Positions 20,509 to 57,189 are shown, numbered from the stretch's first letter. The stretch: 64,000 nt of DNA from Verrucomicrobiia bacterium (GCA_035577265.1 DATLVR010000095.1:819-64818), one strand, 5' to 3'. The notes: generated by a model not told the origin, from the letters alone. Made by a program: numbers and translations.

Positions 20509-21801
20509 TCACCGACTCCGTGGCCACTCGTCTGTCCGGAATGGCACGGCCGGCAGATCGGCCTCAAAGCGCACGGCCACGCGTTTGCCAACAGCCTCCG
20601 GCGAGCTGTTCACGGGCCAGGAGCGGAGCGCTCCGGACGTTCGTTCTGATTTCAATTTTTCTCCTTGATCCACTCCGGTGTTCTTTGGGCTGGAATTGGA
20701 AACGGCCGATGCGTTCGGAGGCACGACTTGCAGCATCACCACCGAACTGCTGCAGGACCAGGAATAAAGCAATCCCTCAGGAGTCGGGTGATTCCAACGC
20801 GACCAAGAAAGATTGTCTGACGTCCGGCGATTTTCCCAGGCGATGTCGGCATTGTTCTGCAACCAGGACTGGTATCTGGATTGAAGGCCACGCGCCTTCA
20901 TGAACCGCGCGAGCCAGCGGGCGCAAATGCCATTGAAACCTCCGGCATCTCCTGATTCCTTATAACCCGGCAGGATTCCTCCCCGGCACAGTTCATTCTT
21001 CGTGTAATCGGCCGCCAAAATCGCTTCATTCGTGTGCCCCAGGAAATTCGCCATGCCGATAAACGTCCCCTGATTGTAGCTAAACGATCTTTCATCTTTG
21101 TCGCCGTTGGATTCAATATTGTCGTAAACCTGGCCGGTGCTGGCATCGAACAAGGCCGAGCGCTCCCAGCGATAAAGGTTCTCCGCCTTCGTCAAATAAT
21201 TGGTGTCGCCGCCGGCCTGATACAACAGATACGCCGCAATGGCGGCGGGGCAGTTCACACAGGAATTCTTGGTGAGATTCGAAATCTTCCACCATAATCC
21301 GCCGCCCAGGTTGGTGGACCAGGCCCGCGCAAAACAAAGGTCGAAATTCTCTTTGGCAACATCACGATAGCCGGTGTTCCCGGTGAGCTGGTGGGCACGG
21401 GCACAGGCGATCACCATCCACATGATGTCGTCATTGAATTCGTTGCCCATCCAGTTGGTGCCGTGATCGGCCACGAACCCCTGGTAGATGCGATTAAACA
21501 TCAACAGGCAATCGGTGTTCGTCGTGCGTTCGTAAACATCCAAAACCATCTCCATCTGCTCGGCCCGGTCCCAGAACCGGGTCTTCCCTCCCACCGTGGT
21601 GGCGCGATAGTAGCCCTTGTCCCCCTCCATGAAATAAAACGCATCGTTGTAACTTTTGAAAATCGCATCCGCGTCGGCGACACTGAACGCGCGCACCGGG
21701 CATGCCGTCATGCCCGCAATCGCGAAACAGGCAGCCATGCAAAGCATCGCTCGCATCCTGCACACATCACTCCGGAATAATTTTATCATCGCTGAATTCA
21801 T
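20509..21801 (-). CDS. Secreted GH76 alpha-1,6-mannanase-like enzyme (stand-alone)
   Basis: GH76 motifs: FWDRAEQMEMVLDVYE, NEFNDDIMWMVIACARAHQLTGNTGYRDVAKENF, GGGLWWKISNLTKNSCVNCPAAIAAYLLYQ, YNQGTFIG. The last ~75 aa are charged and unrelated to the paralog at 50167..53853. Confidence 0.85.
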   Translation of the reverse strand: MNSAMIKLFRSDVCRMRAMLCMAACFAIAGMTACPVRAFSVADADAIFKSYNDAFYFMEGDKGYYRATTVGGKTRFWDRAEQMEMVLDVYERTTNTDCLLMFNRIYQGFVADHGTNWMGNEFNDDIMWMVIACARAHQLTGNTGYRDVAKENFDLCFARAWSTNLGGGLWWKISNLTKNSCVNCPAAIAAYLLYQAGGDTNYLTKAENLYRWERSALFDASTGQVYDNIESNGDKDERSFSYNQGTFIGMANFLGHTNEAILAADYTKNELCRGGILPGYKESGDAGGFNGICARWLARFMKARGLQSRYQSWLQNNADIAWENRRTSDNLSWSRWNHPTPEGLLYSWSCSSSVVMLQVVPPNASAVSNSSPKNTGVDQGEKLKSERTSGALRSWPVNSSPEAVGKRVAVRFEADLPAVPFRTDEWPRSR

Positions 21802-21807
21802 GACTTT

Positions 21808-24573
21808 CTAAAACCGTGACGGTTCCTCCCGGATGGAAATGACGCCGGCCTTGTCCGGGCGATTAATTTCCCGCACGGCATTCCAACCGTCCAGCCGCAA
21901 TTGGACTTGTTTGGCGTCAGCCGCCTGGTTATCAAACCGGATGCGCACCGTTCTCACCTCGCCGGGCAGCAGCGAAAAGAAATTGTCGTCATAGAATGCC
22001 GGGCGCACCGGTTTGGCATCGGTGATGTGTTGCAGCCGCAGCCAGACCATGAACGCCAGCGTTTGCGTGGGATTCTTCACCGTGACATCACAAACGTTTT
22101 CGTTCCCGTCCCGGTTCCATTTCACTTCGCTTGCAAGTTTCACCGGCGGAAGTTTCGCGAGTTCCTCAAAGCCTTGAAATTCCGGCCCGGTCCAGGTGCG
22201 GCCCCGCTCATAAGGTTTATTGGAACGCCAATAAAACGTGTCGGACACCGGGCGCCCCCGGGCATCCGCGAGCTCCAGCTTGATGAAATGAACCGGCGAC
22301 ACGTTGGCTGGAAACGCGATGGACAGCACCTTGTTCGTGACCGCCTCCGCGTCAACGGACACCGGCACGGTCTGATGAAAAACTTCGTGCATGTCCAAGT
22401 TCAGAACGCGGGCCGTTACTTGTCCCTTGAAATCACGCGGAAACTCGTTGTTCACCGCCACGGTATTTTTCAGGAAATCGAATTGTGCGTGGAGCGGCTC
22501 CAGCGCGTTCTGCGTGAAATAGAGCGCTGCCGTAGGCTCCAACGACCAGTCCCACATTCGCCCGCAAACCTGGCGGTTCGGACTGTTGTGATACCAGAAC
22601 AGCAGCCCAGTCGCAAAACGGTCGCCGTAATCAAATTTGTTTGCGTTCCAACATTCCCAGATGGCGCGCCACGCCAGACCACCGAACGCCTGGGCCTTCA
22701 TCGCGTAGTCATCAATATTTTTAGCCGCCCCATACTGTTGCACCGCGCGGTCAAAGTTGCCGGTCATGCCATGAAAACCACCGCCATCGAGATAATCCCA
22801 GACTGTCTTGTTGATCGGCCAGAGATCCTTGTCCGGCATCATTTCGCGCAGGCAATCCACCGTCGGCAAAATGGGACAGCCGTATTCGGGGCAAAGGCCG
22901 TTGATGCGGCTGCCGCGTTTCGAGGCGGTGTCCTCATAGTAGAACATCGGATTTTCCGAAATGTAAGGACTGCCGTCGTGGATGCCGTCGGTCTCCGAAC
23001 CGACTTGATAACTGCAGGTCGGATCCAGTTTCTGAATCAGGTCGGCAATGGAAATGATCCCTTTGGCATCCCGTTCGTTGGCGGAAACGTAGTATGCCTG
23101 GCTAGGGTGATTACGCAGACGCAGAATTGTGTCGGTGACATTGGCACGATACAGCTCGCGGTCGGCCGGAAGCTGCGTGTCGCCAGTCAGCCAAAATTCA
23201 GTCCACACGAGGATGCCATACTGGTCGCAAAGGTCGTAAAATTCGTCGGACTCGGCAACCCCCCCGGCCCACAGGCGAAGAAAGTTGACTCCGGCTTGCT
23301 GCGTATAACGCAGTTCCGCCGCGGTGCGTTCCGGCGAATTGCGGCACATGGCCTCGGGAACCCAATTCGAACCGTGGAGGAACAATCGTTTCCCGTTCAC
23401 CATGAATTCCCGGCTCTGATCCGGCGTGTCGCGATCGCTGCGAATGTCGCGGATGCCGAAGTGCGTCTCGAGCCGGTCGGAGACCGGCTGTTTCCCCTGC
23501 ACAAATTCCAGCGTGAGATGATACAAAAATTGCCCGCCTTTATTGAGCGGCCACCATAAATGCGGCTCGGAAATAGTCAGGGCTTTGAATTCTTCCGGAG
23601 TGAGGCGGATGGTTTTGGTTTCACCCGGCTGCAGACTCACGTTTTTTTCAATTTTGATTTCCGCCTCTTTCACGCTGGCTTTCAGAACGCCTTCCTGCGT
23701 ATTCGACGTGGCATTGACCACGTCTACGCTGATGCTTTCGTTGGCTGGAGCCAGGGTGGGAATGGGCAGATGACTTTCCACAAACGCGTGCCGCAGCGCC
23801 ACCGTCCCCGTCGCGAACAGTTTCACATCGCGCCAGATACCGGTGTTCCGGTCACGAATGCCATCAGTGAACGTGAAATCCCAGCCCACGGTCATCAGCA
23901 TTGTCGTGTTGCGACCGATTTCACCGTCGCCGCCGTTGCGGTTTTCACCTGCGGCGCGAACCGCCTTGTCCTTCTGCCGAAATCCACCCGGTTGATCCAC
24001 CGGCTGCACCAACACGGCCAGCGCATTCGTGCCGGTGAAACGCAAGGCCTCGGTGGCGTTGAACAATCCGCGTCGGAACATGCCGGCGAGGTCGCCCAGC
24101 CTGCGTCCATTCAGCCAGACTTCAGCGTGATAATTGATGCCGTCGAATTGCAACCACACCTGACGCCCGGAAAATTCCTTCGGCACAAAAAACTCGGTGC
24201 GAAACCAGTAGGTGTAAAACTCGCGCCCCACCTCCGAAATATCAGGAATCAATTTTTGCTCGTGCGCATTGTTCAAGCCGAAGTAAGGCTCGGGATAGAC
24301 GCCGTCAAAAACGAGGCTGTTCAAGACCGTGCCGGGCACCACGGCGGTCTGCCAGCCCGCAGTATCAACTCCTGGCAGCGACAAACCGGCTCCGTCCACC
24401 TTCGCATCGTGCCGCCGGATCATGCGCCAGGAATTTGAGCCGCCATGCTGTTCCGGCGAGCGCAGCAGCACCGTCTGCCCCGCCGTGGTCTGCGCCCGCG
24501 ATAGCATGCAAAGGCACAACGACAGGATTGCGCCGGCGAGCAAGAACTTTGATTTTAGCCCGATGACTTTCAC
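21808..24573 (-). CDS. Secreted GH2 glycosidase (beta-mannosidase / exo-beta-glucosaminidase-like subgroup)
   Basis: Signal peptide. GH2 motifs: GWQTAVVPGTVLNSLVFDGVYPEPYFGLNN, VWLQFDGINYHAEVWLNGRRLG, LHGSNWVPE...GVNFLRLWAGG...YGILVWTEFW. The GTG start overlaps the upstream stop (GTGA). Confidence 0.8.
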   Translation of the reverse strand: MKVIGLKSKFLLAGAILSLCLCMLSRAQTTAGQTVLLRSPEQHGGSNSWRMIRRHDAKVDGAGLSLPGVDTAGWQTAVVPGTVLNSLVFDGVYPEPYFGLNNAHEQKLIPDISEVGREFYTYWFRTEFFVPKEFSGRQVWLQFDGINYHAEVWLNGRRLGDLAGMFRRGLFNATEALRFTGTNALAVLVQPVDQPGGFRQKDKAVRAAGENRNGGDGEIGRNTTMLMTVGWDFTFTDGIRDRNTGIWRDVKLFATGTVALRHAFVESHLPIPTLAPANESISVDVVNATSNTQEGVLKASVKEAEIKIEKNVSLQPGETKTIRLTPEEFKALTISEPHLWWPLNKGGQFLYHLTLEFVQGKQPVSDRLETHFGIRDIRSDRDTPDQSREFMVNGKRLFLHGSNWVPEAMCRNSPERTAAELRYTQQAGVNFLRLWAGGVAESDEFYDLCDQYGILVWTEFWLTGDTQLPADRELYRANVTDTILRLRNHPSQAYYVSANERDAKGIISIADLIQKLDPTCSYQVGSETDGIHDGSPYISENPMFYYEDTASKRGSRINGLCPEYGCPILPTVDCLREMMPDKDLWPINKTVWDYLDGGGFHGMTGNFDRAVQQYGAAKNIDDYAMKAQAFGGLAWRAIWECWNANKFDYGDRFATGLLFWYHNSPNRQVCGRMWDWSLEPTAALYFTQNALEPLHAQFDFLKNTVAVNNEFPRDFKGQVTARVLNLDMHEVFHQTVPVSVDAEAVTNKVLSIAFPANVSPVHFIKLELADARGRPVSDTFYWRSNKPYERGRTWTGPEFQGFEELAKLPPVKLASEVKWNRDGNENVCDVTVKNPTQTLAFMVWLRLQHITDAKPVRPAFYDDNFFSLLPGEVRTVRIRFDNQAADAKQVQLRLDGWNAVREINRPDKAGVISIREEPSRF

Positions 24574-26321
24574 AAAATTTGTCCGGCGTCTACCAGCCGG
24601 GGTTGAAGTTTCTTCAGGTTGATGCGCTGGACGCTCGTGCCTTCCTGCAATGCCTGGTCCGCAGCGCGCGCTGCCGATTCACTTAAGATCATCGATGGTG
24701 GTTCCATGCGAACGGAGGCGAAGGCCACGTGCGTGCTGGAAACACAAAAGGTCACCAGGAGGTTTTCGCATTCCGTTTCGCGCGGCGTGATGGCGCCGTA
24801 AGGAATGGAATAGGAATTGCCAATGCGATGGTAAAACCCGCCCTCGTGAATCGCCGCCTGATCCTTCACCAACCGCTGACAGACATGCGAATCAAGCGAG
24901 TAGCTGCCGCAGCCGACGGAATCTTCGCGTTTGACCGGATGTTCACAATGTCGCTGGGTGATGATGTAGTTGCCGACCATGCGCCGAGCCTGCCGGATAT
25001 AAAGCTGTGTCGGCCAGCCACCGGTATCTTGGAACTCGTCCTTCGGCAGGCCCCACGGCGCGATTTCAGTCCGCAGCCATTCCGGGAGCCGATCATCGGT
25101 GCGCAGGAAGTAGAGATAACTACGCTGATAATCCTCATGCGCCCGCCAGAGCCGGGCGCGTTCCGCCCAAGTGCCGTTCGCATAACGCTCCGCACCCCCG
25201 TTGATAAAATCCATCGAGATGCTTGACGAACCATTGTTCACGTCGGTCTTGCCACGCAAGAGCCGGGTGATTTTCAACAGACGCGGGTGATCGCGTGGAA
25301 TTGCATGACCAAAATTGAAATACAGGTCGCCCGGCTCAAGCGGATCGCGCATCTCGTCTAGCGCCGCGATATAGCGGCGCACGATTTCGAAATGTTTCGG
25401 GTCGTAGTTTGCGGGCGGAGCAATCGGTATCGGATTGTTCTTGGTCAGGCACAGCCGGAAATTATATGCCTGAACGGCGGCATTCTGACTGCCTTCCGGG
25501 GGCAGAGATGGGCTGGCGACGAATGGAATCAACCCGCTGGATGAATCACCCGGACGCAGCCAGGGATCAATTTTTACCGGTGTGCGGACGGTCTTCCGGG
25601 AACTACCGGAACCCTCAAATCTCTGGTTTTCGACCGGCGCGAAACAGACGCCGGCAAAGCTTTCATCATATTCTTCCCGGCTTTCACGATCTGTCCGGCA
25701 ACTGACTCCAGCGCGTGCGAGCAAGTCACCTTCGTAGGAACAATCCATGAACATCGCCGCTTCGACCGTTAGATAATTCCGCTCCACTGGATCTGCCACC
25801 GGTGCGCCATGCGAATCCACCGGCGCCTTGTCCAGGGTGATGGATCGTATACGCCTTCCATTTTTTTGCACCGATGCCAGCCGGGATTCGCGAATCACCT
25901 CCACTTTGTGCCGGGCAATGAGCTTTTCGAACATCTCCTCGGCCACATGCGGTTCAACACTCCAGCCGCTGTTTGGAATCCCGGCCGCGGCATAGCGGGC
26001 ACGGACATCGTCAAAGTATTGCCTGGTCAGACTGCCCATGGTTGAAGCGCGACCGTAATCTATCCAGCCGAGACCGCCGGAAGTCATTCCTCCCACGTGA
26101 CGGGTCGGTTCAATGAGCAGGACGGCACGCCCGAGCCGGGCCAAAGCAACTGCCGCGATCACACCGCCGGAGGTGCCGCCGTAAATGCAGACATCCACCT
26201 TGCGACGATTTTCCGTTCCGGCCGCAAAAGCGGGGCCTGTAAGCACGGCGGTGACCGCCAGCGACGTTGTTTGGAGGAACGAGCGTCGGGAGAGCTTGGT
26301 TGATCTGGCGCCGGTAGTCAT
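24570..26321 (-). CDS. Tat-signal FAD-dependent oxidoreductase (FAD_oxidored/PF12831-like)
   Basis: Twin-arginine signal SRRSFLQTTSLAVTAVLTGPAFA. Dinucleotide-binding motif DVCIYGGTSGGVIAAVALARLG...LIEPTRHVGGMTSGG. Confidence 0.75.
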   Translation of the reverse strand: MTTGARSTKLSRRSFLQTTSLAVTAVLTGPAFAAGTENRRKVDVCIYGGTSGGVIAAVALARLGRAVLLIEPTRHVGGMTSGGLGWIDYGRASTMGSLTRQYFDDVRARYAAAGIPNSGWSVEPHVAEEMFEKLIARHKVEVIRESRLASVQKNGRRIRSITLDKAPVDSHGAPVADPVERNYLTVEAAMFMDCSYEGDLLARAGVSCRTDRESREEYDESFAGVCFAPVENQRFEGSGSSRKTVRTPVKIDPWLRPGDSSSGLIPFVASPSLPPEGSQNAAVQAYNFRLCLTKNNPIPIAPPANYDPKHFEIVRRYIAALDEMRDPLEPGDLYFNFGHAIPRDHPRLLKITRLLRGKTDVNNGSSSISMDFINGGAERYANGTWAERARLWRAHEDYQRSYLYFLRTDDRLPEWLRTEIAPWGLPKDEFQDTGGWPTQLYIRQARRMVGNYIITQRHCEHPVKREDSVGCGSYSLDSHVCQRLVKDQAAIHEGGFYHRIGNSYSIPYGAITPRETECENLLVTFCVSSTHVAFASVRMEPPSMILSESAARAADQALQEGTSVQRINLKKLQPRLVDAGQIL

Positions 26322-26475
26322 GTTACATCTGGCCCTGATTTAGCACCACGGCCTCGCCGATATCAACAGCCTGAATGGATTTCTCGACCGCATCTGGCAA
26401 ATACAAAATTTGTAAAAGCGTAAATCATTCGAGAATTATTTTCCGACCGCACCGGGATTGAAGGCGGTTGGCGTA

Positions 26476-27309
26476 CTACCACGGTGCCGGCCTCCCGGCC
26501 GTAGGCACATAATTCTTATACCAAATAAGGTTTCCCCAGTCCTGAAATTTGAAAAGCGCGGCATGGCCATCCACATAACTTACGTTGATGGACCCCGGAA
26601 TCGGCTGCATAAAAGTCGTTTTTCCGGACTTTAACGGATGTCTTGATACGAGGATACGGTTCGGACCATTTATCGGTGCGCTGCCACTAAATGGATAGTT
26701 GGGGTCTCCCTCACCGGTCAACAGGTTTAAATTTGCACTCGGAGTCTTTGAAGGGTCCATCCAGTAATCACACCATGCCGCATCGCAAAAAACCGGCACG
26801 GATGTCGGTTGAAAGATGGAATCTACTTTTCCAAACAAGTGCGAGCTGTCCGGAACGGGGGAATTATGATATAAATATCCGTTGATTGCGTAGCTGCCGC
26901 TGGTTGAACCGGTATACGCAGGATCAATCGCTCCAAACCAATGCCAGGCAGCCGTTGCATTTCCCCCGTCATTGTTATATCCGCCACCGGCTCCGCCAAC
27001 GGGAGCTGTGGGGCAAATCCGCGAGGAACCGGCTTTGGCATAGTAGGCAGACATTGTAGCCATCCATAACGTCGAGCCATACTGGTTGGTGTATTCTATG
27101 CCCACTCCGCCAAAGTCATCCTGATACAAGGCAAACGCCAACTGTAATTGTTTTAGATTATTCAAACACGCGATCTGCTGGCCTTTTTGTTTTGCCTTGG
27201 ACAACGCCGGCAAAAGCATGGCCGCCAGAATCGCGATGATGGCGATGACCACCAGCAGTTCAATCAGCGTGAACCCGTTTGACCTTTTTAATTGTATCTT
27301 CATGTTCAT
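26476..27309 (-). CDS. Prepilin-type N-terminal cleavage/methylation domain protein (DUF1559 / H-X9-DG-type pseudopilin-like)
   Basis: [44 protein letters not shown] at the N-terminus and NVSYVDGHA near the C-terminus. The likely start is [12 protein letters not shown] (27309), preceded by GAGGG. The ORF track extends to 27384. Confidence 0.85.
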
Positions 27310-27337
27310 TGCAAACCCTCGTTTTCTTCGGACAATT

Positions 27338-27367: not shown

Positions 27368-27392
27368 ATTAGTTTTTCAATCATTGGCCAGC

Positions 27393-32266: not shown

Positions 32267-32283
32267 AATTCAATATCTCTCAT

Positions 32284-38611: not shown

Positions 38612-38618
38612 GGCTCCT

Positions 38619-50166: not shown

Positions 50167-53100
50167 TCACGGGAAAACGAGCCGGAAAAAGACGCCGCCA
50201 TTGGCCGGATTGATGGGCATCGTCATCACGTTGGTCGCCGCAGCGCCGATCATATCCACCCAGTTCGCGCCCAGACCGGTCGCCAGCGCATTGGTCTGCA
50301 CCTCCAGTCGCCAGCCGATGTGATCGGCCGGCCAGGCCAGAGTCAATTGATTGCCTGCGCCGATTCCTGTCGCAATGACCGCTGCATTGGTTGACACCAC
50401 CCGGATGCTTCCGTCCATCGCCACGTTGTTTTGCCACACATTCCCGCCCGTTAATGCCGGCAGGTTCACCGTTGTGAATCCATCCACCGGCTGGTTAAAC
50501 AGATAAAACACATCTCCGCCCTGTAACGCCCCGCCAAGATTATTCACCGTCAAGGTTCCGCCTCCGCCAATGCTTCCAGAGATGGATACTAGTTTGTCGT
50601 TCAATGGAACATTGCCGCGGTTTATTTCCATCACCAACGTTCCTCCCAAGGTGATGTTGGTTTCCACGGCGAGCGTGCCGATGGTGTCACCCGGGTTGAT
50701 GGTCGATCCACTCAAGGCATTCAGCTCGCCCAGCAACGTCCCGCCACCGCGCAGCGACCGGCCGTTGTTGAGCGTCAAGGTCTGATCACTCCGCCCGGTC
50801 ACATCCAGAACTGCGGCGTTGGAAATTATGATGGACGCGCTGCTGGCAATGCTGCCCGGCTCGACCAATGCCAGCGTGCCCACACCAATCACGGTATCTC
50901 CGGCATAAGTGTTCGCCTTCGATAGCGTCAGCTTGCCCGCGCCGGACTTGCGCAACCCACCGCCACCATTGGCAAGCACTTGGGGAATGACCAGATTGAA
51001 ACCTGCCGTGTCGAACGCAACACCGCCGGCATTCACATTGACCGTGGTGACATTGGTGATGTAACCGGCGCTGCCGGCCCCGGCCTTGAGAGTGATTCCG
51101 TCCAGATTAACCGTGCTGGTTCCGGCACCGCCCGCGATGCCCGGCCCCGTCGTGGTGATCGTCAACGTGCCTCCGTTCAAGTTCAGTGTCCCCGCAGATT
51201 TGGCGGTGCCGCCCAGCAAAATCGCCGCGCCGTTGTCGGTCGAAACAACGACGCTTGATGAATCGAGATTGCTCAAGGTCAGGACGCCGACCGACTGACC
51301 TGATCCGCTGCCGCTCAAATATTGCCCGACGGTCACCACGGTTCCACTGCCGGCGAGATCAAGATGATTCGCAGCGTTGCCGCCCATGGTGAGAAGTCCG
51401 GTTTCATTCCCATTACCACCGTTGGCCAGTTGACCGAGCGCCAGTTTGCTGAGCCAGGCATTGAGGCGGCCGCCGGAACAATCGAGGTTCCCCGTGTAGT
51501 TGCCGCTGCCACCGCGCGATGATGCGGCGATGTTCAACGCGGTGCGATTGCCGTTGTTTCCCAGGTTCAACGTTGACCCCATTCCTAGCGTGAAGGTCGC
51601 ACTGGCTTTGCTGCCGCCCAGGGTCAGGCTCGGTGTCAGCATGGTCGTGCTGCCGTTGTCGGCGGTGGTGACGGATTGTGCGGTCGTGTTGAAGGTGTTC
51701 CCCATGTCGCCGAAGACAATTGAGGAAGCCGCATTGAGCGTGTTGTTCGTGCCGAGCTTCAGGGTCCCGAGAATGACAGGCGAGCCGCCGGAGGTATTGG
51801 TGCTGATGCCCAGCTGAATCGTGTTCACGTTCGCGGTGAAATTGGTGGACGCCGACACGTCCAACGTCGCGGTGATGGTGCCGGAATTGACATTGCCGGC
51901 CGACGCGATTGCCAGTTGATTGCTGATGGCCAGCAGCGCATTGGACACAACCAACGTGCCGCCGGAGACGATCAATCCGCCGTTGACATAATTGGTGTTC
52001 CGCGCGAAGGAAATGGTTCCAACTCCCGTCTTGACCAGTTCGATCCCGCCGGTGCCATTCCAAATGGATCCCTGAAAAATACCGCCGGCGGCATCGCCAT
52101 TGCCGATGGTCAGCGTGCTCAGATTGGTGTTGCCATTGTAGATTTTCCCGCCAATGCCGCTTAGATTGCCCACGCCCAGATCGAGTCCGTTGAGGTCGAC
52201 GGAGCCGTAGCCATTGCCAGCGCTGTTGCTGAAAGTGAGCGAACCGTTGGTATCACCCAGCGAGCCAGTGCCGCTGAGGCGAACGGTGTCCGCTGCATCA
52301 ATGATGGTCCCGCCCGTGTAGGTGTTGTATCCGGAAAAAATCAGCGTGCCGCCGCTTTGGATCGGGTTCGCCGCCTTTACCTTCAAAAATCCCGGGCCGC
52401 CGATGAATGCCGAGATCGTGAACGTGTTTCCCTGCGGATCAAATTTCCCCCCGCCGGCCCGCAACGTGACATTGCCATAGAAGGTGGCGCTGTTGTTCGC
52501 CCAGTCAGCGACCTCCCCGTTGTCCAGAAACAGATCTGTCCCCACCGAAATCCCCCGTCCGCCGCTCGTGTTCTTGCAGGCGAGTATGCCATTATTGGTC
52601 AACGTCAGCGAACTGCCCGCGAAATAATGGTGCAGCCCGTCCGGTGGGGTTCTCAATGTCAGTCCGTTGACAACATAATCGTGGGCTGAGGATGGCGCCG
52701 TGCCATCCGACCAGTTCAAGCCGCTCTCAAAGCTGCTGCTGCCCGTATCCGACGCGCTCAACGTCACCGTGGTCGGATTCACGGTCTGTGACGGGGGCAC
52801 GGCGATCATGGCCTCGAAGGAGGAGATGCAATCATACGAAAAGAAATTCGTGCCCTCGGGAGTCCGTTGCGGCCATTGACACCAGGAAAGGTTGTCTGAA
52901 GCCCGGCGGCCGTTCCACGCGGCGTTCGCCAGATTCTGCAACCAGACCTGGTAGCTGCTTTCCAGGCCGCGATGCTTCATGAATTTCGCCAGCCAGCGGA
53001 TGCAGATCGCGTTGAAGATGGAATTGTTCTGTGCGATGCCATACTGCGGCATGAAACCGGAACTGCCCATGTTGTTTTTGGTGTAGTTCGCGGCGAGAAT

Positions 53101-53853
53101 CGCGTCATTGGTCAGCCCGAGAAAATCCGCCGCGCCGATGAAAGTGCCCTGATTGTAAGTCGTCGGCACCTGACTCGACAGGCTGTCATAGACCTGGCCG
53201 TTGGCCGGGTTGAAAAAATTCGCTTTGCCCCAGGTATAAATATTGGTTGCCTTCGTCAGGTAAGCGGGATCACCCAGACACTGATAGAGCAGATAAGCTG
53301 CGATGGCTGCGGGAAAGTTAACGGCAGAATTCTTGGAATTGTTGGCGGTAGTCCAGAACATCCCCCCGATGGGTGGCACAACAGTTCCATTGGTGTCCCA
53401 ACCGCGTGCATAACACATATCGAAATTATTTTTGGCGATGTCCAGAAATGCAGGGTTACCGGTCTTGAGATATCCCCGGGCATACGCCATGCACGCCCAC
53501 ATGATGTCGTCGTTAAAGCTGTTCGAAGACCAGTTGGTGCCATTGTAACTTTTAAATCCGTTCAGCAGATTGGTGATCATCACCTGATACGTGGCGTTGG
53601 AAGTCCAATCGTGGGCGTCGATCACGCATTCGATCTCGTTGGCCAGCCACCAGAAATAGGTATAGTTCGCGTTGGCCTGATTCTCCCTGAAATAGCCGTT
53701 GGTGCCGCTGACCACATAAAACTTGTTGGTGTAGGCATTGACGATGGTCGCCACGTCGTTGCTGTAAAAGGCAGACGCCTTGAATCCGCACAGCAAAATC
53801 GTGAGACAAAGCAGCCGAATCCAAACTGACTTCAACTGAATCATTTTTGCCAT
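50167..53853 (-). CDS. Secreted GH76 alpha-1,6-mannanase head + ~860-aa PATR stalk + conserved C-terminal domain
   Basis: GH76 motifs: NSFNDDIMWACMAYARGYLKTGNPAFLDIAKNNF, GGMFWTTANNSKNSAVNFPAAIAAYLLYQ, YNQGTFIG. The stalk is collinear with that of 45395..50050. It ends GGVFFRLVFP. Confidence 0.85.
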   Translation of the reverse strand: MAKMIQLKSVWIRLLCLTILLCGFKASAFYSNDVATIVNAYTNKFYVVSGTNGYFRENQANANYTYFWWLANEIECVIDAHDWTSNATYQVMITNLLNGFKSYNGTNWSSNSFNDDIMWACMAYARGYLKTGNPAFLDIAKNNFDMCYARGWDTNGTVVPPIGGMFWTTANNSKNSAVNFPAAIAAYLLYQCLGDPAYLTKATNIYTWGKANFFNPANGQVYDSLSSQVPTTYNQGTFIGAADFLGLTNDAILAANYTKNNMGSSGFMPQYGIAQNNSIFNAICIRWLAKFMKHRGLESSYQVWLQNLANAAWNGRRASDNLSWCQWPQRTPEGTNFFSYDCISSFEAMIAVPPSQTVNPTTVTLSASDTGSSSFESGLNWSDGTAPSSAHDYVVNGLTLRTPPDGLHHYFAGSSLTLTNNGILACKNTSGGRGISVGTDLFLDNGEVADWANNSATFYGNVTLRAGGGKFDPQGNTFTISAFIGGPGFLKVKAANPIQSGGTLIFSGYNTYTGGTIIDAADTVRLSGTGSLGDTNGSLTFSNSAGNGYGSVDLNGLDLGVGNLSGIGGKIYNGNTNLSTLTIGNGDAAGGIFQGSIWNGTGGIELVKTGVGTISFARNTNYVNGGLIVSGGTLVVSNALLAISNQLAIASAGNVNSGTITATLDVSASTNFTANVNTIQLGISTNTSGGSPVILGTLKLGTNNTLNAASSIVFGDMGNTFNTTAQSVTTADNGSTTMLTPSLTLGGSKASATFTLGMGSTLNLGNNGNRTALNIAASSRGGSGNYTGNLDCSGGRLNAWLSKLALGQLANGGNGNETGLLTMGGNAANHLDLAGSGTVVTVGQYLSGSGSGQSVGVLTLSNLDSSSVVVSTDNGAAILLGGTAKSAGTLNLNGGTLTITTTGPGIAGGAGTSTVNLDGITLKAGAGSAGYITNVTTVNVNAGGVAFDTAGFNLVIPQVLANGGGGLRKSGAGKLTLSKANTYAGDTVIGVGTLALVEPGSIASSASIIISNAAVLDVTGRSDQTLTLNNGRSLRGGGTLLGELNALSGSTINPGDTIGTLAVETNITLGGTLVMEINRGNVPLNDKLVSISGSIGGGGTLTVNNLGGALQGGDVFYLFNQPVDGFTTVNLPALTGGNVWQNNVAMDGSIRVVSTNAAVIATGIGAGNQLTLAWPADHIGWRLEVQTNALATGLGANWVDMIGAAATNVMTMPINPANGGVFFRLVFP

Positions 53854-53870
53854 GGATAAACGGTTCGTTT

Positions 53871-55745
53871 TTATTTTTTCGCGGACATTGCCGGCACGAG
53901 CCAGGCAACATAGCCGCCATCCTTGCGCAAGGGCAGCGGCAGATGGTCCTTCTGCGTGACGATGCGCTCGGTGCGGATAAAGGCGTCGTTCCGTTCCGGA
54001 TCATCCGCCAGTTCGACCAAGCGGTAGCCACCGCTGCCGAGAAAACTCAACGCGACACTCTCGTGGCGTGGTGTGAGGTCGTTGATCACGCCGATAAACC
54101 ATTGGTCACGGCTTCGACGCGCGAAGGCGGCGACCTGCCCGATTTCACTGCCGTGCAGCACGCGGGTTTCGTCCCAATCCGAAGGCAGTGCCTTCAGGAC
54201 ATCCACCGCCATACTCTTGAGATAGTTGGTGGGATTGTCGCCCATGCAAAGATACGGAGAAGTGAAGACGATCGCCATGGCCAGTTCATGCGCAAAGGAA
54301 GAACCTTTCAAACGGTCGTGCATGAACAGTGTTGGCGTGAAGTCGGCAGGCCCTTGAACATAACGCAGAAATGGCAGCGTGATGTCGTGCAACGCCGGAC
54401 TCTTGCCCTGCTCGCGACCGGCGACTGCCTCCCGTGACATCTCGTTCGGCCACGTGCGTTCACGGCCGGTCGGTTTCACCGCCCCGTGAAAATCGATCAT
54501 GAGTTGGTTCGCCGCGGCATCGCGCAATACATCCTCATACCATTGCACCCACGTGGCACTGGCGGGCTCCGGAAAATCCACTTTCAATCCCACGATCCCC
54601 ATGGCCTTGGCGCGTTTGAAATACGCCTCCCGATCCGCCGGTTGGAGGACATATTTGGCATGCACCCACGCCCAGATGTCGACGTTCTGGCTTTTCGCAT
54701 AGGCGACAATTTCTTCCATCGCCTTCCACGCATTATCCCCGCCGCCGTTCCAATCGCGCCAGCCGTCATCGATGAGATAATATTCGTAGCCCATCTCCCG
54801 CGTGCGATCCACCCACCACTTCTGCTTGCCGAGTTCCGGCCCGCAATAGCAACTCAGCCAATGCCAGATCGAACGGCCAGGTTTGATCCACGCCGCATCG
54901 GCCAGTTCCGCCGGCGGCGGCGGGCAAAGATTTTTGATGAGGTCGCTGTTCACCATGGCATTCAAATCGGCGGCCAGCAGCGTCACGTGCCAGGGCGAAA
55001 TGATTTCACCTTCCTGGTCCCAGCCATCGGGGTCGTCGTGAAAAACGGCTTTGAATCCGTTGGGGCCGCTCGACGTCAGCGCCATGTCACTGTAATGAAT
55101 CAAATTCGCCTCAGTCATCAGACCGTAACCGGCATTGTCCGGAAACTTCAACGCGGCGGGTGCCATCAAATGCTGGTTCGTTCCCATCTGGCCGACGATG
55201 TTGGGCACAAAACGTGCCTCGTAAGAACGATTGTCCGCGCTTTGATGCCAGATGGTGGTGCCGGCGGGCAGCTGCCATTCTGAACTTTCGCCATTGATGT
55301 GGTGCCTGCCGGTTTCGGGCACGCGGTAGCGATAGGCGACCCCGTCGTCGTAAGCGCGCAGTTCCAGCTGCCATGATGTTCCCTGCGTGCCGCCAGTCAG
55401 CGGGATGATCGCGGAACAAAAGTGATTGATGGCGTTGGTATGAACACCCCGCGTAACGTAATGCTCGTTGATTTCCTTGGTCTCCGGTTTTCCGGCAAGT
55501 GCAACTTTCTGCCCCAGATCATTGCCGTCCACGGTCACGCCCATCTGTGAGGTTTTCACCACTACCGCATGATGAAACTCAACGGAGTAAGTCAGGCGCT
55601 CACCGGGCTGAACCTGCACCGACACGTGGCCGTCCGGACTTTTGACCGTCACCGCACCGGCGGCATGGCCGGTGACAGCCGCCAACACCCCGGCGGCGCA
55701 CAGGACCATCAAGTTTTTGGGAACGAAATTATTTGAAACGAACAT
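53871..55745 (-). CDS. Secreted GH97 glycosidase (single-domain architecture)
   Basis: The likely start is MFVSNNFVPKNLMVLCAAGVLAAVTGHAAG (55745). The ORF track extends to 55952, overlapping the GH125 gene. GH97 motifs: LELRAYDDGVAYRYRVP, YYLIDDGWRDW, MGIVGLKVDFPE, IDFHGAVKPTGRERTWPNEMSREAVAGRE. Confidence 0.85.
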   Translation of the reverse strand: MFVSNNFVPKNLMVLCAAGVLAAVTGHAAGAVTVKSPDGHVSVQVQPGERLTYSVEFHHAVVVKTSQMGVTVDGNDLGQKVALAGKPETKEINEHYVTRGVHTNAINHFCSAIIPLTGGTQGTSWQLELRAYDDGVAYRYRVPETGRHHINGESSEWQLPAGTTIWHQSADNRSYEARFVPNIVGQMGTNQHLMAPAALKFPDNAGYGLMTEANLIHYSDMALTSSGPNGFKAVFHDDPDGWDQEGEIISPWHVTLLAADLNAMVNSDLIKNLCPPPPAELADAAWIKPGRSIWHWLSCYCGPELGKQKWWVDRTREMGYEYYLIDDGWRDWNGGGDNAWKAMEEIVAYAKSQNVDIWAWVHAKYVLQPADREAYFKRAKAMGIVGLKVDFPEPASATWVQWYEDVLRDAAANQLMIDFHGAVKPTGRERTWPNEMSREAVAGREQGKSPALHDITLPFLRYVQGPADFTPTLFMHDRLKGSSFAHELAMAIVFTSPYLCMGDNPTNYLKSMAVDVLKALPSDWDETRVLHGSEIGQVAAFARRSRDQWFIGVINDLTPRHESVALSFLGSGGYRLVELADDPERNDAFIRTERIVTQKDHLPLPLRKDGGYVAWLVPAMSAKK

Positions 55746-55767
55746 GGTTGATTTTTCTTGAGCGGAG

Positions 55768-57189
55768 TTAATCCAGCAAGTGTGGTTGGGTATTGAATGT
55801 TTTCCAGACGAACTCACCGAAAATCGTGTTCGCCCAGGCAAACCATGAGCGCGTGAATTTACCTGGATTGTCCTTGTTGAACGCCTCGTGGATAAAACCC
55901 GTGCCGGCGTGCGTGTGCTGAAGCGTTTCAAGACATTGACGAATTTCCGCATCGTTTGTGGCGGTCAGCCCTTCCATGATCACGCCCAGCGGCCAGATCA
56001 TGTCCACGCCCACATGCGGCCCGCCGGGCCCGCTCGCCGCCTTGCCGACACAATAATACGGATTGTCCGCCGACAGCAGCAGCCGGCGCGTGTTCTGGTA
56101 GAGCGCATCGCTGTGCGTTGTCGCTCCCAGATACGGCAGCGACAGCAGGCTCGGAATGTTGCCGTCGTCCGTGCAATAGTAGTTGCCGTAGGCGTCCACC
56201 TCGAATGCATACACGCGGCCGGCCTTGGGATGATTGACGACCGCGTATTCGCGCAGCGCATTTTCCACTTCATCAGCCATGGCGCGGCATTGCTTCGCCA
56301 GATCGTGATCATTTTGAATCTGTTCAACCATCTCCGCCGCCTGGCGCAGGCTGACGACGGCAAAGAAATTTGATGGCACCAGGAACGGAAAAATGGTCGC
56401 GTCATCACTCGGCCGGAACATTGAAAAAATAAGCCCCACAGGCTTTGCGGGATTGCCATAGCCGTGTCCCGGAACGGTGTCTGTCTGAAATTCCGTCCGG
56501 CGCATGAAATGATACGGCCCCCTGCCCGTCTTGCGCTGCTGTTCACGAAAAGTTTGCAGCGTCAATTTGATGGCGTCATGCCACGCGGCGTCGAACGGCG
56601 CGGCGTCTCCGGAAAGTTTCCAGTATTGATGCGCCAGCCGGATCGGGTAGCAGAGGGAATCGATCTCCCATTTGCGCTCATGCACTCCCGGCTTCATGTC
56701 CGTCAGGTCATTTTTCCACTCGCCGACTTTGTGGTCATCCTTGTAAAACGCATTCGCATAGGGATCCTTCAGGATGCAGCGGGTTTGACGGTTGATGACG
56801 CCCGCGATCAACTGCTGCAACGGTGCGTCGTCCTTCATCAAGGACAGATACGGGTAAACTTGTGCCGAGCTGTCGCGCAGCCACATCGCGTCAATATCGC
56901 CGGTGATGACGTAGGTGTCCGGACGTCCGTCCACCACCGCAAAATCCACCGTGGTGTCCAGCGTGTTCGGGAAACAATTTCCGAACATCCACGCGAGTTC
57001 CTTGTTGCCGATGGTGGACTGCACCTGCGCAATCGCGCGCTCGACGGCGACACTCTTGAACTTGCGTTTCGCTTCCGGCGTGCGCACGACCGGAAAGCCG
57101 GGCGCCGGTTCAGCGGCCCAGTTCAAAGGCGTAAAAGTAAGCACCGAGGAGGCGATGGCGCTGTTAAGGATGAATTCTCTTCGGTTCAT
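55768..57189 (-). CDS. GH125 exo-alpha-1,6-mannosidase-like enzyme
   Basis: The likely start is MNRREFILNSAIASSVLTFTPLNWA (57189), a Tat-like RREF signal. The GH125 signature is YVITGDIDAMWLRDSSAQVYPYL; the protein is ~470 aa. Confidence 0.8.
   Translation of the reverse strand: MNRREFILNSAIASSVLTFTPLNWAAEPAPGFPVVRTPEAKRKFKSVAVERAIAQVQSTIGNKELAWMFGNCFPNTLDTTVDFAVVDGRPDTYVITGDIDAMWLRDSSAQVYPYLSLMKDDAPLQQLIAGVINRQTRCILKDPYANAFYKDDHKVGEWKNDLTDMKPGVHERKWEIDSLCYPIRLAHQYWKLSGDAAPFDAAWHDAIKLTLQTFREQQRKTGRGPYHFMRRTEFQTDTVPGHGYGNPAKPVGLIFSMFRPSDDATIFPFLVPSNFFAVVSLRQAAEMVEQIQNDHDLAKQCRAMADEVENALREYAVVNHPKAGRVYAFEVDAYGNYYCTDDGNIPSLLSLPYLGATTHSDALYQNTRRLLLSADNPYYCVGKAASGPGGPHVGVDMIWPLGVIMEGLTATNDAEIRQCLETLQHTHAGTGFIHEAFNKDNPGKFTRSWFAWANTIFGEFVWKTFNTQPHLLD

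Follow-up and report, generated by a model that had tools for sequence, protein, structure and literature searches.

Described systems for α-mannan breakdown

The α-mannan loci of Bacteroides thetaiotaomicron, MAN-PUL1/2/3 and HMNG-PUL, which Cuskin et al. are said to have described in 2015, reportedly combine a surface endo-acting GH76, a periplasmic GH125 and short GH76, a GH97 α-galactosidase (in MAN-PUL1), a surface endo-β-N-acetylglucosaminidase (ENGase) that releases N-glycans and an in-locus sensor-regulator. The locus analysed here, a 15-gene array within a 64,000 nt stretch of verrucomicrobial DNA (the window), resembles these PULs in those enzyme types and in its sensor-regulator. 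The Bacteroides loci differ in their use of lipoproteins, SusC/D import, HTCS regulators, a GH18 rather than a GH85 ENGase, and GH92/GH38/GH99 debranching, whereas GH67, GH28 and a PF12831 flavoprotein are present in the window locus and absent from the B. thetaiotaomicron PULs.

The α-mannan locus PUL52 of Bacteroides salyersiae encodes T9SS-CTD-tagged GH76, GH38 and binding proteins (bioRxiv 10.1101/2022.07.15.500217). Like the window locus, it contains GH76, GH125, GH97 and GH2 together with sensor-regulators and a short second GH76, and its very large multimodular GH76 and large binding proteins share a C-terminal domain of ~80 aa that other enzymes of the locus do not carry. However, PUL52 has a SusC/SusD pair, GH92/GH38 and the TIGR04183 Por_Secre_tail recognized by the T9SS, while the window locus has no SusC/D, GH92, GH38 or TIGR04183 and combines a different tag family with a β-helix stalk. 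The T9SS is not known from outside the Bacteroidota.

Within the Verrucomicrobia, CAZyme clusters and TonB-dependent ‘CUT loci’, some of the TBDR type, have been reported (He et al. 2017, PMC5615132). These also encode exported glycoside hydrolases without SusD, and have been read as extracellular hydrolysis followed by uptake; unlike the window locus and its seven relatives, in which no TBDR lies within reach, they carry TonB-dependent receptors and inner-membrane transporters. Neither a stalk-and-tag architecture nor a linked pseudopilin is described for CUT loci (PMC5615132). SusC/D-less verrucomicrobial CAZyme clusters and CTD-tagged Bacteroides GH76 are, thus, already known, and the first-pass annotation of this DNA overstated its case in suggesting a possibly undescribed organization. 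What is new here is the predicted barrel-less passenger-like stalk, the 78 aa tag, the exchange of that tag for PEP-CTERM, the recurring gene set and the CBM32 of the sensor kinase.

Organization of the locus

The host, represented by a single 92.7-kb contig, is a soil Pedosphaera-like Verrucomicrobium; its kinase is 80–83% identical to Pedosphaera/Verrucomicrobiia MAG proteins, which agrees with the PVC origin proposed at first pass. All 15 ORFs of the minus-strand array at 20509–57189 were found at the coordinates given earlier, and Pfam assignments agree with the earlier family order, from GH125 at the 57189 end to a short GH76 at the 20509 end (Table 1). Junctions were measured from the starts that give signal peptides and agree with public gene calls. 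The three 4 nt overlaps in the original description (GH85/GH67, GH67/GH97 and FAD/GH2) are real, but the description of the spacers as mostly short (7–25 nt) survives only in part: 8 of the 14 junctions overlap or measure at most 22 nt, and the other six measure 116, 106, 148, 254, 83 and 154 nt. Gaps of 83–254 nt make several transcription units likely, and the array is, therefore, probably not transcribed as one.

Table 1. Features of the 15-gene array, in confirmed gene order, with the tag copies and the upstream intergenic region
Feature	Position	Strand	Basis or remark
GH125 exo-α-1,6-mannosidase, untagged	55768..57189	-	Pfam PF06824 E 1e-166
GH97, α-galactosidase-like, Sec signal, untagged	53871..55745	-	Pfam GH97_N/GH97/GH97_C
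GH76 endo-α-1,6-mannanase head, β-helix stalk, C-terminal tag	50167..53853	-	Pfam GH76+PATR
GH85 Endo-A-like endo-β-N-acetylglucosaminidase head, stalk, tag	45395..50050	-	Pfam GH85+GH85_C+PATR
GH67 α-glucuronidase, Sec signal, untagged	43245..45398	-	Pfam GH67 N/M/C E 3e-141
GH97, CBM62-like galactose-binding module, C-terminal tag	40723..43248	-	Pfam GH97
(α/α)6 six-hairpin (toroid) glycosidase-like, distantly GH78-like, untagged	38619..40616	-	Pfam Bac_rhamnosid6H, MGH1-like
GH28, Ig stalk, divergent C-terminal tag (…FFRVLAE)	35678..38611	-	Pfam GH28, I-set
Sensor histidine kinase (HK; HisKA_3/HATPase_c)	32284..35529	-	Pfam
NarL/LuxR-type response regulator (RR)	31646..32266	-	Pfam Response_reg + GerE
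Giant secreted PATR/LamG_3/Ig protein, C-terminal tag	27393..31391	-	Pfam
Prepilin-type pseudopilin-like protein, H-X9-DG/DUF1559-type expansion	26476..27309	-	Pfam N_methyl
PF12831 FAD-dependent oxidoreductase	24570..26321	-	Pfam FAD_oxidored E 6e-90
GH2, β-mannosidase/exo-β-glucosaminidase clade	21808..24573	-	Pfam
Short GH76, head only, Sec signal	20509..21801	-	Pfam GH76 E 3e-34
C-terminal tag, 78 aa	50167..50403	-	Alignment of tagged proteins
Tag copy, GH85	45395-45631	-	
Tag copy, GH97-CBM62	40723-40959	-	
Tag copy, giant protein	27393-27629	-	
Divergent intergenic region upstream of GH125	57190..57778	.	Probable promoter region and upper locus boundary

Past the divergent intergenic region, the genes on the plus strand form a giant adhesin-like operon. 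At the other end, the one-strand CAZyme array extends below 20509: past a truncated IS3 remnant lies a second cluster, equipped with a separate HK/RR, that reaches the start of the window. This downstream cluster contains GH78, two GH27, a GH79-like gene and an esterase-GH97.

All 13 non-regulatory proteins of the array begin with an export signal, which is of the TAT type in two. Eleven CAZyme genes surround one HK/RR pair (Pfam), a sensor/regulator arrangement shared with Bacteroidota-type PULs, and the HK and RR, lying inside the array, supply the nearby signature gene (a transporter, transcription factor or signal-transduction protein) that, with CAZymes, makes up a dbCAN-type CAZyme gene cluster (CGC). 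The adjacent susC-like and susD-like genes of a Bacteroidota-type PUL are absent: window ORFs of at least 150 aa gave no Pfam match to TonB_dep_Rec, Plug or SusD, and the earlier statement that TBDT and SusD are lacking extends to the 6 kb past the upstream end and to the genes called within ±10 kb of the related loci on seven contigs. The only permease in the window is a broken MFS/GH31 chimera (9145–9855), so none is intact, as had been noted. The wider claim that no transporter lies adjacent holds for outer-membrane transporters but not generally, as a Lac/Chb-type PTS in one relative and an MFS+ROK pair in another adjoin these genes.

Mannan and N-glycan core enzymes

The combination of α-1,6-mannan and N-glycan enzymes recognized at first pass is borne out by the catalytic motifs. 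The array contains the GH76 and GH125 pair that characterizes yeast α-mannan loci, with the NDD motif kept in both GH76 genes. GH125, 473 aa in the public gene call, has a TAT-type signal (MNRREFIL). The stalked GH76, whose orthologs in Verrucomicrobiae MAGs are 65–69% identical, consists of a head (aa 1–340), a stalk of ~800 aa and the tag; the short GH76 is 46% identical to that head, and no stalk remnant was found downstream of it. The GH85 protein has a signal peptide after the start at 50050 and a PF03644 catalytic domain (E 2e-74), and matches Endo-A (PDB 2vtf, E 8e-132). It retains the N-x-E catalytic motif that marks GH85 membership, equivalent to N171/E173 of Endo-A, within a conserved FINQET. 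We take the 2vtf structure to be the E173Q mutant of Endo-A. The GH2 protein matches CsxA (2vzt, E 1e-68) and β-mannosidase (5n6u, E 1e-44).

No GH92, GH38, GH99 or GH47 side-chain mannosidase was found in the window (Pfam). A faint GH99 match, and nothing stronger, lies near the related contig L085.

GH76 and GH125 accept any accessible α-1,6-mannan backbone, Actinobacteria are abundant in soil and the GH92, GH38 and GH99 of yeast-mannan PULs are missing from the window, all of which would suit a bacterial target such as actinobacterial lipomannan/lipoarabinomannan, or another microbial heteropolysaccharide, in place of a fungal one. We regard such a target as very improbable, because the Endo-A-like GH85 targets a chitobiose core, present in eukaryotic N-glycans but not in bacterial lipomannan, and is kept next to GH76 in the related contigs L088 and L090, and because a β-mannosidase-clade GH2 fits the Man-β-1,4-GlcNAc core.

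Debranching enzymes and the recurring gene set

The window also encodes a debranching set of two α-galactosidase-type GH97, a CBM62, GH67, GH28 and the GH78-like toroid. The closest solved structure to the untagged GH97 is the BtGH97b α-galactosidase (3a24, E 1e-48). In the second GH97, the module at residues 634–767, annotated at first as CBM32, proves on sequence comparison to be a galactose-binding module of the CBM62 type (2yb7, E 1.4e-40). The six-hairpin protein, conserved in L088, matches Bac_rhamnosid6H weakly (36 bits, above the cutoff) and has no sequence relative in the PDB. GH28 gave a PglB-like NCBIfam match (E 1e-22) and is 71% identical to its ortholog in L086; its residues 533–935 are 46% identical to residues 862–1280 of the giant protein, a common Ig-containing stalk.

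GH67 and GH28 are known for activity on plant xylan and pectin, and both were initially taken for misfits in a mannan locus. In the relatives, viewed to ±10 kb each, they are instead conserved partners of the stalked GH76. The set of GH76-stalk, GH67, GH97, GH28, flavoprotein, GH2, HK/RR and giant protein with pseudopilin recurs, shuffled, in seven related contigs; GH76-stalk, GH67 and GH97, with or without GH28, PF12831, GH2, GH85 and GH125, are found in L004, L085, L086/87, L088, L090 and L091 in differing orders, and the GH2 called in L086/87 has matching Pfam domains. Recurrence in differing orders argues that selection, not accretion, has kept the set together, and, because GH67 and GH28 recur with it, that both belong to the system.

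A composite island is one counter-proposal: the plant polymers glucuronoxylan, pectin or arabinogalactan-protein would be the targets of GH67, GH28, the GH78-like protein and GH97, mannan or N-glycan that of GH76, GH125 and GH85, and rearrangement would have joined the genes. The known specificities of GH67, GH28 and GH78 (CAZy), the plant- or gum-oriented look of the downstream cluster, the IS3 remnant and deletion chimera that mark a rearranged region, and the large internal spacers that suggest separate units all point this way. We nonetheless think it unlikely. Four contigs of differing order (L004, L085, L086/87 and L088) have GH67 directly beside the stalked GH76 or GH97; the GH28 ortholog of L086/87 begins with a region that shares ~40% identity with a portion of the GH76 stalk, and in L090 a GH28 neighbours the giant protein; a single HK/RR pair sits mid-set in the window, L086 and L090; and xylanase, pectate lyase and galactanase are absent.

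Because GH67 and GH28 are conserved partners of the stalked GH76, we prefer a decorated acidic heteromannan over a mixed substrate. The target would be fungal-type glycoprotein glycans on an α-1,6-mannan/N-glycan core, decorated with α-galactose, uronic acid and probably rhamnose rather than long mannose side chains. If true, a mannan-linked role for GH67 and GH28 would represent a new specificity. Mannose, rhamnose, α-glucuronic acid and galactose occur together in fungal peptidorhamnomannans (PMC3243909). The lack of side-chain mannosidases in the window and the mannosidase-related CBM32 of the kinase sensor also favour this substrate.

Stalk and C-terminal tag

The head-stalk-tag architecture suggested at first pass is real, modular and conserved among relatives. 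Stalk and tag form a module of ~900 aa that is 50% identical between GH85 (residues 605–1551) and GH76 (residues 316–1228). The AF2 model of the GH76 stalk is a β-helix (pLDDT 89.7) whose best PDB matches are autotransporter passenger β-helices (E 2e-4 to 1e-3, probability up to 1.0), and the stalks carry the PATR matches (Pfam) of a type Va passenger. As in the type Va autotransporters EspC, Ag43, IcsA, Hap and pertactin, a long right-handed PATR β-helix bears a functional head, but the stalked proteins have a glycoside hydrolase as head and no C-terminal 12-strand β-barrel; no array protein matched the Autotransporter translocator family of Pfam, and the GH76 protein ends 78 aa past the helix, in an FN3-like domain. 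The stalk is, thus, predicted to be an autotransporter-passenger-like β-helix without a barrel.

This terminal domain is the common tag noticed earlier, recovered by BLASTP among four proteins (E 1e-13 to 1e-29); tag matches reached E 6.5e-34 in the giant protein and E 5e-39 in GH97-CBM62. It is modelled as an FN3-like β-sandwich (pLDDT 85), although FN3 fold matches are weak (E about 0.1), and it has no match in Pfam or NCBIfam. The tag matches 4,782 representative proteins; among the best 150 of these, it reaches the C-terminus (to within 3 aa) in 149 and ends in a terminal Pro in 127. Across the loci searched, each significant match runs up to a stop codon; non-verrucomicrobial loci, ~1.2 Mb in all, gave none. 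The heads bearing it are diverse (PATR, LamG, GH78, GH71, GH76 and lectins), and a 159 aa ORF (166 aa stop-to-stop frame) also ends in the tag. Within the array, its bearers are endo-acting and binding proteins.

Neither a membrane anchor nor a recognized sorting motif occurs in the tag, and an NCBIfam scan of the tagged proteins found no T9SS CTD family (Por_Secre_tail, TIGR04183) at E<=0.01. Like the tag, the PEP-CTERM/exosortase signal is found at the C-terminus of secreted PATR proteins in this lineage, and it stands in place of the tag on 3 of 118 stalk homologs. P0335, P0355, P0380 and a 301 aa protein of L085 show the PEP motif, TM helix and basic cluster of such a signal, which the C-termini of the window proteins lack; the tag is a folded domain with none of these elements. 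A PEP-CTERM protein is encoded in L085.

We infer that the tag is a localization module that retains its bearers at the surface. It could alternatively be a passive terminal domain or CBM. FN3 domains are often passive linkers in secreted glycosidases, and a structural or carbohydrate-binding FN3-like end would suit stalked enzymes set free from the cell, for instance through type II secretion, with the cell scavenging mono- and disaccharides through generic transporters. The fold fits such an end, being a β-sandwich that weakly resembles FN3 and lacks a hydrophobic anchor and any known motif; every enzyme needed to reach monosaccharides carries an export signal, making complete extracellular digestion possible, and none of the loci examined contains an outer-membrane importer. 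Release is a possibility that we take seriously but doubt, as so strict a C-terminal placement, with a conserved terminal Pro, is unusual for passive linkers and CBMs; PEP-CTERM can end the same stalk; the tag also occurs on non-enzymatic giant proteins and the 159 aa ORF; and the CTD-tagged Bacteroides analogue is cell-associated (bioRxiv 10.1101/2022.07.15.500217).

A two-tier working model

Surface retention is accordingly the reading adopted in our working model, in which we have moderate confidence: a two-component-regulated, SusC/D-less cluster that degrades decorated fungal-type α-mannan N-glycans with two tiers of enzymes. The outer tier would comprise the large secreted proteins that share the 78 aa FN3-like domain, namely GH85, GH76, GH97-CBM62, GH28 and the giant LamG/Ig protein (a putative glycan-binding protein), with the β-helix as shared stalk in GH76 and GH85 and the Ig-containing module in GH28 and the giant protein. 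These would act beyond the outer membrane, most likely kept at the cell surface, where the Endo-A-like ENGase would cut the glycan off the protein. A second tier of compact, untagged enzymes with export signals (GH125 and the flavoprotein, both TAT-type, with GH97, GH67, the six-hairpin enzyme, GH2 and the short GH76) would finish the fragments. A periplasmic location of this tier would call for an outer-membrane importer, which the loci examined did not reveal; outer-membrane passage and cytoplasmic uptake would be encoded elsewhere.

The kinase combines a ~790 aa extracytoplasmic sensor with one TM segment at 820–846, and its full-length orthologs are confined to Pedosphaera-like MAGs. Sensor residues ~35–132 match the N-terminal CBM32 of the NnGH92 α-mannosidase 7nsn (E 1.7e-29; PMC10167667). 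Through this mannosidase-type module, the kinase may detect released oligosaccharide, and the LuxR-type regulator would then turn the genes on together.

The pseudopilin and a possible export route

Orthologs of the giant protein lie directly before the pseudopilin gene in L004, L086 and L090. The pseudopilin has a prepilin leader of the G|F-x-x-x-E type (KRSNG|FTLIELLVV) with a hydrophobic N-terminal helix (N_methyl 07963, E 3e-9; TIGR02532); its NCBIfam matches are limited to the GspG/PilA N-terminus, and its homologs, more than 7,000 at E<=1e-10, are named prepilin/H-X9-DG or ‘xcpT 10’. No prepilin peptidase, assembly ATPase or secretin gene was found in the window.

A bolder proposal, which we consider quite improbable, makes the tag a functional counterpart of the T9SS CTD: a signal for recognition or attachment in a new verrucomicrobial route by which folded proteins of very large size cross the outer membrane or come to sit on it. 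The locus-specific H-X9-DG pseudopilin would then be a cargo-specific adaptor or tip in a T2SS/type-IV-pilus-like machine that exports or displays tagged proteins, possibly reeling in glycan. GH67, and perhaps GH28 and the flavoprotein as well, would act with novel specificity on fungal mannan that carries uronic acids. Such a route, if true, would explain how PVC bacteria manage without SusC/D. The flavoprotein of the array has a TAT signal (SRRSFLQ), no PDB relative and a 74% identical ortholog in L086; PF12831 proteins were also called in L085 and L089.

Organization of the glycoside hydrolase array

An ORF scan of the window recovered an unbroken series of long minus-strand ORFs from 57282 down to 20509, and the Pfam assignments agree exactly with the 15 gene identities and the gene order proposed in the first-pass annotation (see the table of features). 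The window covers bases 819-64818 of the 92.7-kb metagenomic contig k141_478717 (ENA ERZ27256706). With start codons picked for signal peptides and for agreement with the genes called publicly on that contig, the 14 junctions measure 22, 17, 116, -4, -4, 106, 7, 148, 17, 254, 83, 154, -4 and 6 nt, confirming the three 4 nt overlaps noted previously. The accompanying description of mostly short spacers holds for the eight tight junctions, but the other six are roomy enough for internal promoters, and so the array is best read as about five co-oriented units, rather than one proven 37 kb operon. Consensus scans for promoters and terminators across 19000-58000 gave counts not above those of shuffles and no clear operon boundaries, and Rfam and tRNA scans of the whole window returned no matches. 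N-terminal export signals are present in all 13 non-regulatory proteins, and twin-arginine motifs were found in GH125 (NRREFIL) and the PF12831 flavoprotein (SRRSFLQ).

Over 617 residues the GH85 head aligns with Arthrobacter Endo-A (E 8e-132), and it retains the N-x-E catalytic motif (FINQET). The NDD motif is retained in both GH76 copies. The untagged GH97 is nearest to the alpha-galactosidase BtGH97b (E 1e-48); in the other GH97, the extra module previously labelled CBM32 proved to be a CBM62-type galactose-binding domain (2yb7, E 1.4e-40). The GH2 falls in the exo-beta-glucosaminidase/beta-mannosidase clade. PDB sequence searches returned no relatives for the flavoprotein or for the toroid, a six-hairpin protein distantly similar to GH78.

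Features of the window and of related verrucomicrobial loci
Feature	Location	Strand	Content
Second CAZyme cluster	window 2194-19119	minus	own HisKA_3 kinase and LuxR regulator
Proteins sharing an unannotated module	window 3-1910, 6174-9047, 2194-6054	minus	module of ~215-300 aa
MFS/GH31 chimera	window 9145-9855	minus	in-frame fusion
IS3-family remnant	window 19345-20195	plus	OrfA-like 89-aa ORF, OrfB N-terminal HTH_21
Array genes 1-5 (Pfam)		minus	GH125, GH97, GH76+PATR, GH85+GH85_C+PATR, GH67
Array genes 6-7 (Pfam)		minus	GH97 with extra beta-domain; six-hairpin Bac_rhamnosid6H (weak, above threshold)
Array genes 8-10 (Pfam)		minus	GH28+Ig; HisKA_3 kinase; LuxR-type regulator
Array genes 11-15 (Pfam)		minus	1,332-aa PATR/LamG_3/Ig; N_methyl prepilin-like; PF12831 FAD oxidoreductase; GH2; short GH76
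Kinase CBM32-like region	window 35135-35430	minus	residues ~35-132
Divergent operon	window 57779-64000 and L083 11445-21425	plus (window)	354-aa, 474-aa (Ala-rich), 3,153-aa giant, then 880-aa proteins
L088 (223-kb soil contig)			window order: divergent adhesin genes, GH125-GH97-GH76-GH85-GH67-GH97-toroid-GH28-kinase
L086/L087			giant LamG protein, pseudopilin, kinase, regulator, GH76-stalk, PF12831, PATR-GH28, GH67, GH2
L090 (Pedosphaera sp. GCA_028293325.1)			GH28 / giant protein, pseudopilin, kinase, regulator, GH85-stalk, GH76-stalk
L085			GH97, GH76-stalk, GH67, GH97-CBM-tag, then convergent regulator, kinase, PF12831
L085 PEP-CTERM protein	L085 18453-19358	minus	301 aa
L004			kinase, regulator, giant protein, pseudopilin, then convergent GH97-CBM and GH67
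L004 GH97-CBM-tag ortholog	L004 6865-9402	minus	two ORFs (464 + 378 aa)
L089 short tagged ORF	L089 9289-9768	plus	159 aa (166-aa stop-to-stop frame)
L089 uptake neighbourhood	L089 12669-18218		pseudopilin ortholog and PF12831 gene adjoining Lac/Chb-type PTS (EIIC, EIIB, HPr-EI-EIIA)
L091 uptake neighbourhood	L091 3735-6005; 11111-15005		GH76-GH97-GH125 string with ROK and MFS permease at head; pseudopilin adjoining PTS

A stalk and a C-terminal tag behind unrelated heads

In all-against-all BLASTP comparisons, residues 316-1228 of the stalked GH76 and 605-1551 of the GH85 protein were 50% identical over 957 aa, placing one stalk-plus-tag module of ~900 aa behind two unrelated catalytic heads; residues 533-935 of the GH28 protein and 862-1280 of the giant protein were 46% identical. 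The AlphaFold2 model of the GH76 stalk and tag, built from a 33-sequence alignment, is all-beta (mean pLDDT 89.7, pTM 0.81). Its best PDB matches are the passenger beta-helices of type Va autotransporters, namely EspC, Ag43, IcsA, Hap, EspP and pertactin, with E values of 2e-4 to 1e-3, probabilities of up to 1.0 and the low global TM that is expected with long helices. The stalk and these autotransporters have a passenger-like beta-helix in common, but the stalk comes with no beta-barrel translocator.

The common C-terminal tag that had been proposed is borne out: the GH76, GH85, GH97-CBM62 and giant proteins all end in the same 78-residue pattern, …LTLSWPxxHxGWxLQxQTN…NW…G…TN…P…FFRLxYP-stop, and divergent versions end the GH28 protein and the downstream esterase-GH97. 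A separate model of the tag, based on 119 sequences, shows a small beta-sandwich (pLDDT 85) whose top fold matches are FN3 domains, at weak scores (E about 0.1, TM 0.45-0.48). It matched no model in Pfam or NCBIfam, those for the T9SS Por_Secre_tail and PEP-CTERM included, and the precomputed Pfam annotations of its homologs, which are nearly all short unnamed metagenomic fragments, leave the tag region uncovered.

A tag profile made from four copies and searched against 1.84 billion representative proteins gave 4,782 matches at E<=1e-3, of which 3,314 reached E<=1e-10. Among the best 150 of the 4,782, the match ended no more than 3 residues from the protein C-terminus in 149, and the final residue was proline in 127. 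Heads on 34 full-length tagged representatives were mostly PATR (17), LamG_3 (10) and Ig (10), and more rarely GH78, GH71 alpha-1,3-glucanase, GH76, F5/8C, DUF642 and ricin lectins. Two of ten tag-bearing representatives carry the JGI name 'fibronectin-binding autotransporter adhesin', and taxonomy is almost absent. All significant matches in the compared loci abut stop codons and lie in verrucomicrobial loci; none fell in the loci from Bacteroidota, Desulfobacterota and other groups, which total about 1.2 Mb and in which the loci sharing just the kinase core with the array served as a negative control. The tag is also the ending of 96 of 118 stalk homologs; the other 22 have mostly divergent W…F[YF]R[LV]-type endings, with a few fragments or different endings, and a PEP-CTERM signal replaces the tag in 3 of the 118.

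The tag is strictly terminal, follows many kinds of head, has so far been confined to verrucomicrobial sequences and can be exchanged for an established sorting signal. These features would be expected of a localisation module, although they do not prove such a role. The tag can occur without a large cargo domain, since in locus L089 it ends a 159-aa ORF (E 7.5e-23) and fills about the C-terminal half. In locus L085, a 301-aa protein encoded between the tagged GH97 and the regulator was considered as a pseudopilin and turned out to be a PEP-CTERM protein (…VPEPSTWAVFGLGILPLMLAFKKR), so exosortase and tag systems coexist in the same lineage.

Conservation of the locus and links to uptake

Orthologs across the related loci are 45-74% identical, indicating that these loci come from different species. 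GH67 and GH28, previously regarded as a poor fit to a mannan system, both recur with GH76 in relatives of differing gene order; their recurrence, like that of the flavoprotein and GH2, places all four at the core of the GH76 system rather than among stray genes. In the window, L004, L086 and L090, the genes for the giant tagged protein and the pseudopilin are conserved as a pair that points in one direction, usually adjoining the kinase and regulator genes. A dedicated secretion or display pathway, dependent on the tag and assisted by the pseudopilin, would be of high interest if true; we consider it unlikely. In L004 the GH97-CBM-tag ortholog is split, through a frameshift that made it a pseudogene or through an error in the assembly.

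No match to the TonB-dependent receptor, Plug or SusD families was obtained for any ORF of the window, in line with the first report of a locus lacking a TonB-dependent transporter and a SusD-like protein. The wider claim that transporters are absent nearby stands in part: the relatives' loci also show no TonB-dependent receptor and no SusD over the +/-10 kb covered around each, but a PTS adjoins system genes in L089 and L091, as do an MFS permease and ROK gene in L091, showing that inner-membrane uptake can be linked to the system. The PTS may import the Man-GlcNAc core. The reported lack of an intact permease was also upheld, as the sole permease-like sequence of the window is an in-frame chimera. 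The N-terminal part of an MFS sugar transporter (TM1-4) makes up its first ~160 aa and is fused to a piece of the C-terminal beta-domain of a GH31 enzyme; a deletion apparently left this remnant and destroyed both genes.

Substrate, sensing and a two-tier model

The mannan and N-glycan enzymes of the locus are the GH76 and GH125 backbone pair, the N-glycan-releasing ENGase (GH85) and the beta-mannosidase-clade GH2. GH92, GH38 and GH99 predominate in yeast-mannan PULs, and none of these alpha-1,2/1,3-mannosidase families was found in the locus. The debranching candidates are instead two alpha-galactosidase-type GH97 enzymes (one with CBM62), a member of the GH67 alpha-glucuronidase family, GH28 and the GH78-like toroid. 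Family-level specificities thus fit a fungal alpha-mannan or N-glycan backbone bearing galactose, uronic acid and rhamnose. Glycans of this kind occur in Sporothrix and Pseudallescheria, whose peptidorhamnomannans and galactomannans contain mannose, galactose, rhamnose and rhamnose-substituted alpha-D-glucuronic acid (PMC3243909). If GH67 and GH28 do act on mannan decorations, these activities would be new and would extend two well-studied 'plant' CAZy families.

The array kinase has a single TM segment at 820-846, which leaves ~790 residues extracytoplasmic. Its first module is a homolog (E 1.7e-29) of the CBM32 that opens the Neobacillus novalis GH92 alpha-1,2-mannosidase (7nsn) and that had mannoimidazole bound in the crystal (PMC10167667). 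For the other ~650 residues of the sensor, relatives are detectable in close MAGs alone. A kinase scan of genome contigs gave only two true orthologs, and the other 78 loci, from Bacteroidota and Desulfobacterota, were kinase-core matches alone. The earlier suggestion of a PVC system is right: two MAGs, one of a Pedosphaera sp. and one of Verrucomicrobiia, encode proteins 80% and 83% identical to the kinase, and the NCBI-named stalk homologs come from Verrucomicrobiae or Pedosphaera MAGs.

We infer that a two-tier topology, with surface work and product sensing, is most likely. An outer tier, comprising the tagged ENGase, endo-mannanase, alpha-galactosidase-CBM62, GH28 and giant binding protein, would act beyond the outer membrane and is probably cell-associated. 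The untagged GH125, GH97, GH67, toroid, flavoprotein, GH2 and short GH76 would complete the oligosaccharides, and the CBM32-bearing kinase would detect products and turn on transcription via the LuxR-type regulator. This split between tagged, endo-acting or binding proteins and untagged, exo-acting ones parallels the surface/periplasm split of Bacteroides mannan PULs. An especially close parallel is a B. salyersiae PUL encoding a very large GH76 and two binding proteins with T9SS CTDs (bioRxiv 10.1101/2022.07.15.500217).

Relation to known systems

Verrucomicrobia are major polysaccharide degraders in soil and aquatic environments. To our knowledge, how they arrange extracellular glycan breakdown without the SusC/D and T9SS toolkits of Bacteroidota is poorly understood, and this locus represents a concrete, conserved and testable case. 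In Bacteroidota, alpha-mannan loci and C-terminal-domain-directed GH76 display are already known. CAZyme clusters lacking SusC/D are likewise known in Verrucomicrobia, some of them carrying TonB-dependent receptors (PMC5615132). Within Pfam, NCBIfam and the searchable open-access literature, what appears new is the family of FN3-like tags placed strictly at the C-terminus, the joining of these tags, on glycoside hydrolases, to passenger-like beta-helix stalks that lack a barrel, the conserved pairing of giant protein and pseudopilin, and the conserved association of GH67, GH28 and PF12831 with GH76. The open-access literature yielded nothing directly relevant on PF12831 in polysaccharide use, on links between pseudopilins or DUF1559 and glycoside hydrolases, on 'autotransporter-associated beta strand' proteins, or on Verrucomicrobia with GH76/GH125.

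A regulated enzyme set for fungal cell-wall glycoprotein, as proposed here, would bear on the turnover of fungal necromass carbon in soil. The architecture of head, beta-helix and C-terminal domain recurs in thousands of uncharacterised proteins; if the tag is a sorting signal, a large protein family would be annotated and a new secretion or anchoring mechanism indicated.

Flanking DNA

Upstream of GH125, a 590-nt divergent region precedes a plus-strand operon with no transporter among its four proteins. The 354-aa, 474-aa and 3,153-aa products have no significant Pfam match, the last giving weak PA14 and beta-propeller matches, and the 880-aa protein is cadherin/Calx-beta/RTX-like. The first two genes also adjoin the locus in L088.

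On the other side lies a truncated IS3-family remnant without an integrase core. No other coding remnant on the plus strand separates the two CAZyme clusters, and it marks a point of rearrangement. That the short GH76 is a stalked copy cut by this element was considered and rejected, since no stalk-like sequence lies between the gene and the remnant. The second cluster encodes a GH78, two GH27, a GH79-like protein (PDB 5bwi, E 5.6e-54; no Pfam detection) and an esterase-Ig-GH97 fusion, and by its content looks more like a locus for plant gum or arabinogalactan-protein. Its GH78 includes a TSP3 repeat and another kind of C-terminal domain, with the ending FLRVVVSYP, and the GH27 pair are GH27+He_PIG paralogs, 73% identical. 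Three downstream proteins have in common an unannotated module (33-55% identity) with no Pfam match, another shuffled module in the source genome. In the GH79-like protein and in the ORF crossing the window start it lies near the N-terminus; in the esterase-GH97 fusion it occupies residues ~291-518.
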